In this document: in pieces, positions 26,587 to 62,215 of the stretch
Numbering within the stretch: position 1 is the first letter of the stretch
Layout: every line of letters begins with the position of its first letter
Assembly (NCBI GenBank): GCA_964016885.1
Contig: OZ024749.1
Span: 11,966,001 to 12,030,000, forward strand
Source: Eledone cirrhosa
Taxonomy: Eukaryota
Reading direction: 5' to 3'
Length of the DNA stretch: 64,000 bases
The notes under the pieces: generated by a model
What the model was told of the DNA's origin: nothing
The model's database searches: none
Seen by the model: the letters and a program-made list of their open reading frames with translations, nothing else
Program-made: the position numbers and the translations under genes

Positions 26587-26988
<402 letters not shown>

Positions 26989-56336: not shown

Positions 56337-59268
56337 GGTCTTGTGTAGTTATAATACAACTTTGTTATTAGGTTTTGTGTGGGTAAAATTTGAGGAGAGG
56401 ATAAATAAAATTTACATTTGATTAAAACAAACTGGGAAGTGGAAGAATAAAAATATTGGTGGCATGGTGGAGAAATTATTTAGTGTGCGTGTGTATATAC
56501 ACACACACAAATCAAGTTTTATAGAAAATAGTGTTTTGTTTGAAAGTTCCCACAATGTGAATTGGATGGTAAATGTTAAATACTGATGATGTTGTAGGTC
56601 CTTATATATTGGGGTGTTTCCTTGTAGGTCCTTATATATTGGGATGTTACCTTGCAGTTCTTTATAGGTCCTTTAAGTATCATTTATAAATTCAGTTGGT
56701 TGTATTTTAGAAAGTGGGGGGGGGGGACTACAGCTGGTTACATGTATTTTTATAGACAAATACTTGAGGAATATTTATTAACAATGTGGCTCCTCAGTTT
56801 AAATAGGACCAGAAACTGGTTACTGTTTTTCCAAATATGTAGGGAATGCAGCTATCAATCACCAAATTATGTAAATCATTAAATGAAATTCCTTTTATAT
56901 TACTTTGAAACTAAGGTAGGACTGCGATTTAAATTTTGATTAATGATCAATATTTCAAGTTTACATTACATATATTTTTGTTTTTAAATATTCAGTTTAG
57001 ATTTAATAAAGGCTTTTAAAATGGGTTTCATTTTTTTTCTATCAAAATGTTCCATCACAGAAAAAATGAAAAAATAAAAAGATAAAAAATAAAAGAAAGC
57101 TAGACAAAAGAACGAAAATAAAGAGAAACTGGAATAAAAGGTTGGAGAAAAATATGGCAAAATAAGTGTCGGAACTATGCAGCAGCAAATAGTAATGATG
57201 ATGATGATGGTTAGTGGTAATGACACTAAAGATAGTGATGTTAATGATGATGATAGTGGTGTTGATGTTAAAGGTAGCACTAATGTTGACGATGATGATG
57301 GTGAGGATGGTAATGATGGTGAGGATGATAAGAACTGTGATTATGATTATGACAAGTGTCTTCATTTGCAGCTATCAAAGGCATAACAAAATAGCAAATA
57401 GTCAGTAAATAAGAAGTAAAAGAACTTGAGATCATCACCTTTTCAGACTATTTACTATGGCGAGAATTGTATTAGAGTAGGGTGTGGCTGTTTGGGGGTG
57501 CATATTAATTATTATTGAGGAAAAAAAAAAAAAGAAGATCCTATTGCCAGATCAGACCGAGGAAAATATGCCTCTATTGGTCTTTTCATTGCTGATTCAG
57601 TCTGCTGGTCATTGCTTCTGGCAGAAGAAAGGGAAGGAGCTGGTCATCAGATTGAACCAAGAAAACTGTTTCCATTGGTCTTTAAATTGCAGAACCTATC
57701 TGTAATAGTTACAGCTTCTGGCAGAAGGTGGTGGGGATTTAATTGAGAATACATAGAGCAGGATGGTGTAGCATAAAACATCCAACATAGAGCAGGATGA
57801 TGTAGCATAAAACATCCAACATAGAGCAGCCAATCCACAGCTATTTATATATTTTATTGAACTATGAAAGGATGAAAGATAACGTTGACTTGAGTAGGAT
57901 TTGAACAGAGAATTCAGTGAGCCAGAACAAATGTTGAGCTGTTTAATGTGACAGTTTAACGACTCTATCAATTAGTTATAATCAACCTACTAATTAAGAG
58001 AGCAATACAGGAGACGTTAACATTACTGATGATGATGATGGTAATGATGAAGAGAGTACTAGAAAAAAACAGACAGAGATAAATGGAGAAATGTGTTTGG
58101 CAAGAGAAGATAAGCGAAAAGAAAAAACGTGCTGACTTTTTGTCTGCTAAATGAGAGAGAGAGAGATAGAGAGAGAGTTAGTTGTTTATCACCACACAAA
58201 TACATCTCATTATACTAGAGTTTCAAAGCTCTACATGTGATTGCTGACAAGCACAGTCCATTTGAACTACTATTAGTGAGATAAGTAAGTGAATAAAGTT
58301 AGTTTGTTTTCTTTTTGTTCTTATATTAATACAGATGTTTGTTTTGTTGGGTCTATCTGTACATTAGTGGATGCCGGCATGTTTGTTTTTTGTTGTTTTG
58401 CTTGGTTTATCTGCCTGTAGGTACATGTACATATGTCTTATCTACATATTTCACTGAAATTTGCATTCACCCAAGTGTGATTCTGGCAACAAGATACTTT
58501 ATTTCACATTGTTCCATTCCACTAATTCAAAAGGCCAGCCTTGTCACACACTGAATTATGTTGAATCTCCCCAAGAACTACATTAAATGTAGAATGCTCA
58601 GTCACTTGCCTGTTATTTTCATGAGCAGGCTGTTCCATTGTTTGAACATCCGGAAAATTTGTTATTGGAACCAAAGAAGTTCCAACACAATGTATACAAA
58701 TTATATGTCATGTATGTAGATAATAACATTTAGGTGAGTTAATATATGTCATTCTAAGATTGGTAATAAGCAGCTGAGTGGAGGTGGAAAGTCAAATATA
58801 TTGACCACAGTATTTCACTGGTATTTTATTGACCTCAGAAGGTTGGAAAGCAAAGTCAACCTAGATGGGACTTGAACTCAGAACACAGAGTATTATGTCT
58901 GAGGCTCTGCAGATTCACCAGCCTCTACTTGATATGCAGCAGAATGTAGGTAGACTATCTGAAGTGGATTGTGTAATGTATGTGTATCTAGTATAGGTTA
59001 TATGTGTGTATAATATCTAGAGTAGGTTATGTAATGTGTGTATAACACCTAGGGTAGGTTGTGTAATGTATGCATAATGTCTAGAGCAGGTTATGTAATG
59101 TGTGTCATTCAATGTGTGCATGAATGAGTAAATGAAATTCCAATGCAAAACATAATGAGAAAACCTTATGGTGTAGTAGTAGACTTTCATAGCATAAGCA
59201 GGAATCTGATTCTCGTCTTCTGCACTAAGTACGTATTTTAGTGTTATCACACCTGTACTGTCACTTAC

Positions 59269-59277
59269 CTGCCGACA
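59269..59277 (-). CDS. Src42A: Putative 9-nt microexon of the Src42A-type kinase (TGTCGGCAG; adds V-S-A)
   Basis: ctag|TGTCGGCAG|gtaagt. Frame-preserving and stop-free in phase 1, which matches the next exon. Preceded by a 111-nt AG-free zone with a long U-rich tract. Confidence 0.65.
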
Positions 59278-59542
59278 CTAGGTGAGTAACCATCATCATA
59301 CGTCATTAATCAGGGTGATTAGTGAAATTAAAAAAAAAAATAAGAAAAAAAAAAGAAAAGAAAATGTAGTTAAAAATAGGATTGTCCATACTTTACAAAC
59401 AAAAGAAGAAAATTGGAATAAATTAAAACTGAAATGACATGGACTGTGTTGTGAAAGAATTTGTTGGTTGAAGAATGATGGAGAAAACTGGGGATATATA
59501 TATATGATGATGATGATGATGATGATGATGATATATATATAC

Positions 59543-60180
59543 ATCTACACCCAGAGCTTTCAATAACTGGGTAAGTTATCGGGAAAACGGAGAAGGGGGG
59601 GGGGATAGAAGAGAAAAGGGAAGAAAAGAGAAAACAGCGAAAAACAACAACAGACCGAGCAATGTGCGAGCAACTTAAGGTAAGAAAATCCAAGACCACA
59701 GCAATAAGAGAACTTAAGTTGAAGAGCGTGTGGGCGAGAGAAAAGACACACATCTGACCCCAGGGAGTTGTAAGTGAGAAAAGGACTACTAGAGGGTCAG
59801 GTGAGGGAAACAATGAGGTGGCTGTCAGAGAGAGGGAGAAAAGGAGAGGAAGCATGAGGGGTAAGAGTAGATAGTAACAAAATAGGTAGGTAGAAGGAAC
59901 CTTAAGTTGCTCGCACATTGCTTGGTTTGTTGTTTTTTTTCACTGTTTTCTCTTTCTTCCTTTTCCTTCTATTTTCCTTCCCTCTCTCCTCCATTTTCCC
60001 AATACTTACCCAGTTATTGAACACTCTGGGGGGTAGATATCTTATCTTTAAAGCAAGGAAATATCTGAGACCCCCAGTAGACAACTGATGAGGAAACTCT
60101 GCCCCGTTCTTGCTTTCTTCTTATTCCCACTCCGTTTTAAGCTACCTTAAATAGCAACTACACAGCCATTTCTATTCTCC
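59543..60180. mobile_element. Fold-back element with inverted arms of about 138 bp; possible Penelope-like pseudo-LTR remnant
   Basis: Arms at 59543-59681 and 59899-60038; CTGATGA-G-GAAAC at 60085-60097. Confidence 0.5.

Positions 60181-62215
<2,035 letters not shown>

Follow-up and report, generated by a model that had tools for sequence, protein, structure and literature searches.

Two alternative 9-nt microexons and a likely TG acceptor vary the alphaD-alphaE loop of the Src42A kinase in the octopus Eledone cirrhosa

The intron splitting the alphaD-alphaE loop of the kinase domain of octopus Src42A raises the question whether a segment of nine nucleotides in its interior is used as an exon, how its inclusion may be controlled, and what it adds to the kinase. 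The locus was analysed on a 64,000-nt stretch of contig OZ024749.1 from Eledone cirrhosa (positions 11,966,001 to 12,030,000; the window), and tblastn comparisons covering the window and the 200 kb past its end place a single SH2-kinase gene, with seven identified exons, on the minus strand. The gene product is an SH3-SH2-kinase protein with a Src-family fold, which is nearest to named Src42A proteins (Src42A/FRK), and the exons correspond to proteins named Src42A in Octopus. The host intron is 43,886 nt long (43.9 kb) and free of N. An earlier note on this DNA had given a reading frame on the condition that the upstream exon ends in G, and the exon found beyond the window indeed ends with CAA G in front of the donor gt, so the reading frame foreseen in that note holds: skipping yields Q-G-K-G-R, while inclusion of the short exon, here termed microexon 1, yields Q-V-S-A-G-K-G-R. 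The elements of the gene and of the region around microexon 1 are as follows.

Contig 12036879-12036721, beyond the window, minus strand: upstream exon, ending CAA G before gt, phase 1
59269-59277, minus strand: microexon 1, 9 nt, phase 1-1, adding V-S-A after Q342 of the kinase domain
59280-59390, minus strand: AG-free zone of 111 nt, with a U-tract at about 59365-59329
59373-59369, minus strand: candidate distal branch point UUAAC (-96), from the sequence
59318-59324, minus strand: CACUAAU (ACUAAU at -46), matching the proximal branch-point consensus CUAAY and also a QKI/How-type site
26656-26834, minus strand: downstream constitutive exon, 179 nt, encoding the rest of the alphaD-alphaE loop, alphaE, HRD and DFG

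Microexon 1 lies 11.4 kb from the upstream exon and 32.4 kb from the downstream exon, which starts at 26834 in phase 1. It is flanked by an acceptor AG at 59279-59278 and a donor GTAAGT starting at 59268. As far as the sequence is concerned, the description in the earlier note is accurate, since the exon, its consensus donor, the 111-nt AG-free stretch, the ACUAAY motif, the distal branch-point candidate and the missing UGC (absent from the 160 nt upstream of the exon) are all present. The stretches 1-4000, 42000-48000 and 60001-62000 of the window are very AT-rich or strongly skewed (GC skew 0.78; GC down to 0.12) and probably represent simple repeats in introns or flanks.

Four runs were compared at the downstream acceptor, and two of them contributed records, namely X22 from the same organism and X1 from a second one, whereas X12 and X23 yielded no record there; in the runs X9 and X14, the upstream exon is not covered. 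The evidence on junctions consists of assembled contigs, whose depths do not represent shares of molecules. Run X22 provided four records, the loose ends of which match the predicted ends of three splice forms letter for letter. One of these records, a 58-letter contig with a depth of 13.2, joins the upstream exon, microexon 1 and the exon starting at 26834, which is the junction the earlier note had proposed to look for in RNA. Two 57-letter records from run X1 decode as inclusion and skipping of microexon 1; the tie consensus of this run departs from the predicted mix of both forms at two places, which are both explained by one synonymous change, and paths for skipping, for inclusion and for unspliced RNA reproduce the record lengths. 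An origin of the junction contigs from a processed copy of the gene was considered and rejected: the exon and the surrounding island of microexon 1 are single-copy in the genome, and a further junction found in RNA, which joins the second microexon described below to the V-V codons, is absent from the genome. Microexon 1 is thus real with near certainty. It is an alternative, frame-keeping microexon of Src42A, falling within the size range of 3-27 nt with AG/GT ends, being spliced into mRNA, and occurring in both included and skipped forms; inclusion and skipping are likewise modelled in the RefSeq isoforms X2 and X4 of O. sinensis, respectively. The suggestion that it is hidden from annotation does not apply to the relatives, because the RefSeq entries XP_029648313.1, XP_029648314.1 and XP_014775612.1 already include it. 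Taken by itself, microexon 1 is ordinary and known from RefSeq models of related species.

The exon at 26834 had also been regarded as the one following microexon 1. Its phase and distance agree with this assignment, but it is not always the next exon, since a second microexon intervenes. When the intron was scanned for short exons that keep the frame, seven candidates emerged, only two of which have a long AG-free and pyrimidine-rich flank, i.e., microexon 1 and the following element.

39577-39585, minus strand: microexon 2, 9 nt, phase 1-1, adding A-S-D, with a donor GTAAGT and two X22 contigs
39588-39725, minus strand: 138-nt AG-free zone preceding microexon 2 and containing a U-tract, UUAAC at -43, UGC at -30 and -5, and UCUC at -93

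In a stricter scan, requiring YAG followed by 3-27 nt and GTRAG, an AG-free zone of at least 80 nt and at least 65% pyrimidines (thresholds chosen after the candidates had been seen), 264 kb of sequence contained exactly these two matches on the gene strand and none on the opposite strand, and 200 block shuffles of the intron gave a mean of 0.03 matches. Both matches occur in RNA contigs. For microexon 2, these are an X22 record joining it to the 26834 exon (depth 12.1) and a 64-letter X22 contig (depth 13.6) joining the upstream exon, microexon 2, the last six intron nucleotides and the next exon. Its flank resembles other sites in the genome only over the U-rich part. The exon is found in none of the 398 proteins compared, and its RNA support comes from the single run X22. 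Neither microexon 2 nor the TG acceptor treated below was noticed in the earlier note. Relaxed scans additionally returned a candidate 27-nt exon in the same intron (63791-63765, minus strand), whose AG-free zone measures 82 nt and whose donor is weaker, and which is not represented among the records at the downstream acceptor, as well as three weak short-exon candidates on the minus strand of the intron between the two SH2 exons, at window-equivalent positions 101970, 106629 and 135796.

The combination of these exons was assessed by treating contigs as paths through a 31-letter graph and testing sets drawn from 15 candidate paths for letter-for-letter agreement. Only 16 of the 32767 path sets reproduce all four X22 records, and every one of the 16 requires the forms with microexon 1, with microexon 2, with microexon 2 plus V-V, and with both microexons; eight of them also allow skipping. 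No skipping record is among those listed for X22, while forms without microexon 1 are present. Double inclusion of V-S-A and A-S-D is thus deduced from contig break points, the joining contig itself not being among the records, and the two microexons would accordingly not be mutually exclusive: a pair of that kind is never used together, whereas the path sets of X22 contain both at once.

The V-V codons correspond to the last six nucleotides of the intron, which are preceded by TG in the assembly.

26842-26841, minus strand: TG of the likely TG-AG tandem acceptor, with the six nucleotides 26840-26835 kept and V-V added in some transcripts

After microexon 2, both acceptor positions, 6 nt apart, are used in X22, and V-V isoforms are also found in RefSeq models of two Octopus species. 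In humans, TG acceptors serve exclusively as alternatives to an AG lying within 28 nt (PMC2374985). The same features are seen here, with a TG not more than 28 nt from the AG, alternative use and a GT donor, and the 9-letter motif at the V-V acceptor is identical to that of the TG acceptor listed for intron 2 of human OSBPL8 (PMC2374985, Table 1). Note that hidden AG alleles can mimic TG acceptors, as stated in the same source. A separate 6-nt exon encoding V-V was considered and rejected: the sole AG-flanked candidate (40521-40516) has different letters and a purine-rich flank and is located upstream of microexon 2, and a scan of the intron, which is free of N, revealed no fitting 6-nt exon downstream of microexon 2. 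On balance, V-V probably arises from a TG acceptor. The octopus case shares the TG alternative within 28 nt of AG and the OSBPL8 motif with the human TG-AG tandem acceptors (Szafranski 2007), but differs from them in being found in a mollusc, in affecting a coding kinase loop and in being combined with two microexons.

A view on related proteins bears on the age of these elements. Fifteen members are listed of an 18-member protein cluster of Src42A, and among these V-S-A is present in the O. sinensis isoforms X1 and X2, the older O. bimaculoides X1 and two further proteins. V-V alone is found in four of the listed records, and O. sinensis isoform X1 carries both V-S-A and V-V. The RefSeq models of Octopus sinensis (X1-X4) and O. 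bimaculoides represent the same gene with V-S-A and V-V inserts at the same site, covering forms with no insert, with V-V and with V-S-A plus V-V, although the TG origin of V-V is not stated there. None of the 15 records listed for this cluster of 18 shows A-S-D, A-S-D plus V-V, or double inclusion. The two further V-S-A proteins are 94% identical to that of O. sinensis, compared with 98.5% for Argonauta, and are therefore likely to come from a more distant cephalopod. A protein search centred on the insert, with 77 candidates scored, returned one V-S-A protein among 25 matches. In a sampling that favours skip forms, a three-residue insert is found in none of the 19 named non-cephalopod molluscs, 17 of which have no insert and two of which (Dreissena) have one residue. 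The microexon had been called old, and this holds within the cephalopods, beyond which the sampled molluscs lend it no support.

A stronger version of this idea, in line with the earlier note, dates microexon 1 back to the protostome ancestor and equates it with a three-residue insert in fly Src42A. The intron position indeed appears to be shared, since in the genomes of many other animals the reading frame is interrupted at this very residue, and insects bear inserts at this site. However, the insect inserts vary in sequence and length, the 19 molluscs argue against such an origin within the sampling just mentioned, and the fly exon known to depend on eMIC differs from it. According to PMC8797185, this exon of Src42A (DmeEX0006556) measures 27 nt. 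Exon arithmetic excludes it from the octopus site, with 439 nt preceding the fly exon and 614 nt being needed to reach that site, on the assumption that the 95-nt exon of the published table is the SH3 exon (an exact fit, with the D. erecta protein as stand-in). All six Drosophila and Glossina proteins compared lack an insert, these being short isoforms as favoured by the skip-form query. Thus, DmeEX0006556 resembles the octopus microexons as a short alternative exon in an orthologous gene, but is three times longer and located upstream of the octopus site, probably in the SH2-kinase linker. Common ancestry across protostomes is very improbable on these grounds, and repeated, independent gain of such exons within one gene, for which 10.64898/2026.09.05.749416 provides a description, would by analogy fit better than shared descent with the fly exon.

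Inserts in Src42A isoforms are also observed elsewhere in the protein, namely in the SH2 domain in amphioxus and in the SH2-kinase linker in a planthopper and a sand fly (P0270/P0311, P0301, P0354). Others are located where the activation loop begins, at the intron equivalent to 26655-24000 of the window, in Dreissena, Babylonia, a chiton, lobster and ticks; a relaxed scan of this intron in the octopus genome gave no microexon candidate. Src42A appears to be a hotspot of short alternative exons. A literature search found no paper on the octopus exons; most subscription papers lay outside its coverage, and the supplements of 10.64898/2026.09.05.749416, a paper that deals with O. bimaculoides exons, may list them.

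Both microexons share several properties with the neural microexons depending on eMIC (SRRM3/4, Srrm234), namely a frame-keeping length of 9 nt, a long AG-free zone, a strong donor and, in the case of microexon 1, the CUAAY motif (111 nt and CACUAAU). The corresponding zone of microexon 2 spans 138 nt with UUAAC as nearest branch-like motif, and this exon additionally shares UGC and UCUC with eMIC-dependent microexons. The UGC near the 3' splice site is present at -30 and -5 in microexon 2 but missing in microexon 1. The earlier note had taken the missing UGC together with ACUAAY as a hint at a QKI/How-type regulator in place of eMIC, an argument that has proved weak. CUAAY is the branch-point consensus and enriched before eMIC-dependent exons (PMC8797185). 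Among SRRM3/4-dependent microexons, 74-79% have UGC and about a quarter lack it, the motif not being strictly required (10.1101/2024.09.17.613571). At ACUAA branch sites, QKI acts as a competitor of SF1 and thereby as a repressor of inclusion (PMC13004596). Since ACUAAY equals the branch-point consensus, QKI would be expected to repress the exon rather than to activate it.

An explanation retaining this type of regulator would place microexon 1 mainly under How/QKI competing with SF1 at CACUAAU, the exon being included at low How levels and skipped at high ones (muscle, glia), with eMIC unneeded. The position of ACUAAU at -46, the lack of UGC, the documented competition of QKI with SF1 and the presence of a STAR_dimer gene in the genome are consistent with this proposal. 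It appears unlikely nevertheless, because only one ACUAAY site is present upstream of microexon 1 and none within 200 nt downstream, whereas strong repression by QKI required two ACUAA elements in PMC13004596, and because the role as branch point fully accounts for the motif and the missing UGC is compatible with eMIC. Note that the genome contains matches above the Pfam cut-offs to both SRRM_C (eMIC) and STAR_dimer (QKI/How-type).

Another peculiarity of microexon 1 is a predicted RNA structure.

59260-59290, minus strand: predicted hairpin in which the 11 nt before the microexon 1 AG pair with its own donor in 10 of 11 pairs

The predicted hairpin covers both splice sites of microexon 1, with pair probabilities of 0.83-0.97 and -10.8 kcal/mol. 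It ranks fourth of 1276 YAG sites in the intron and is reached by 198 of 20000 shuffles, values which refer to a feature noticed after the fact, and six other exons gave -3.4 kcal/mol or weaker in the same comparison. The microexon 1 region as a whole folds no better than shuffles (z -0.5 to -1.3). CACUAAU itself is predicted to pair with 59312-59304, with probabilities of 0.57-0.99 in three contexts and -2.4 kcal/mol alone. According to PMC12871342, vertebrate neural microexons have unusually unpaired regions between branch point and AG; hence, microexon 1 differs from eMIC-dependent neural microexons in lacking UGC and in being predicted to be base-paired where the vertebrate ones are open.

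On the protein level, the structure model containing V-S-A shows alphaD at residues 337-342, the insert at 343-345 and alphaE from 353 onwards, and the placement of V-S-A in the alphaD-alphaE loop that had been proposed earlier is thus backed by the reading frame, the junction contigs and the model. The predicted fold matches that of c-Src, whose loop has nine residues compared with eight in the skip form, and the forms seen or inferred have loops of 8, 10, 11, 13 or 14 residues. Averaged over residues 341-350, pLDDT amounts to 74 in the presence of the insert and to 94 in its absence, and a short helix at 344-347 is predicted in the form without it; with both models resting on one shallow alignment (75 rows, pTM 0.54-0.55), they give a weak hint that the loop changes depending on V-S-A. 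The loop between alphaD and alphaE is also the site of the kinase (DE) insert in receptor tyrosine kinases, as described in PMC8662651. That insert is long, fixed and often tyrosine-phosphorylated, whereas the octopus kinase acquires 2-6 residues without tyrosine by splicing.

Such a position would also suit inserts that are merely tolerated variation in a permissive surface loop, with fixed, unregulated splicing rates and no functional effect. Unrelated inserts are found at the same site in ants (3 and 5 residues), bees, wasps, a midge, a spider and annelids, and the loop is one residue longer in c-Src. Moreover, 282 of the 311 proteins that match the loop pattern have the insert-free loop of eight residues (out of 398 proteins, the 87 non-matching ones being outside this count). 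On the other hand, V-S-A is identical in octopods and in a lineage 94% identical to them, long AG-free zones with consensus donors are rare by chance for both exons, and the inclusion contigs equal or exceed those of skipping in depth, which makes the variation quite unlikely to be neutral in this sense.

The explanation we favour, and which seems somewhat better than an even bet, is that two alternative 9-nt microexons and a likely TG acceptor together give a loop of 8-14 residues, with inclusion probably regulated by tissue and most probably neuronal, the neural bias being assumed by analogy to other animals. Skipping would be the default for both microexons, given that their length does not suffice for exon definition and that a long distance separates their U-tracts from the AG. 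The eMIC/Srrm234 signature is complete in microexon 2 (UGC at -30 and -5). In microexon 1, UGC is lacking, the CUAAY branch point is strong and the predicted hairpin covers both splice sites; its inclusion would therefore require that the spliceosome is recruited early (eMIC) or that the hairpin is opened, and How/QKI could exert repression at its branch point. In the protein, the fold and the active site would be kept, and the short helical turn predicted after alphaD may be replaced by a longer surface loop; such a loop would alter contacts to partners or substrates or the regulation from the SH2 side, rather than switch the kinase off. A more far-reaching version, which we regard as tentative and doubtful, assumes three independent splicing switches. 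Microexon 1 would be gated by its hairpin, in which the acceptor flank imitates U1 and conceals the donor of the same exon, microexon 2 would be of the eMIC type, and the TG acceptor would be non-canonical yet conserved. Together they would deal seven loop forms by neural cell type and thereby change binding or phosphorylation.

In vertebrate c-Src, likewise a Src-family gene, a single intron hosts the short neuronal microexons N1 and N2, which can be used singly or together and affect the SH3 domain. The octopus pair has a similar layout, but belongs to another subfamily, affects the kinase loop instead of SH3 and is not homologous. What the present analysis adds is microexon 2, the likely TG acceptor and the way in which they combine within a single kinase loop, and a simple scan of raw intron sequence recovered a true exon that the compared protein records lack. 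With one loop varied by two microexons that differ in their upstream codes and by a likely TG acceptor, the cluster constitutes a compact test case for the regulation of cephalopod microexons by eMIC, How/QKI or RNA structure, and a likely invertebrate example of TG-acceptor splicing. It also offers a handle on the role of the short alphaD-alphaE loop in Src-family kinases, the loop that bears the kinase insert in receptor kinases.
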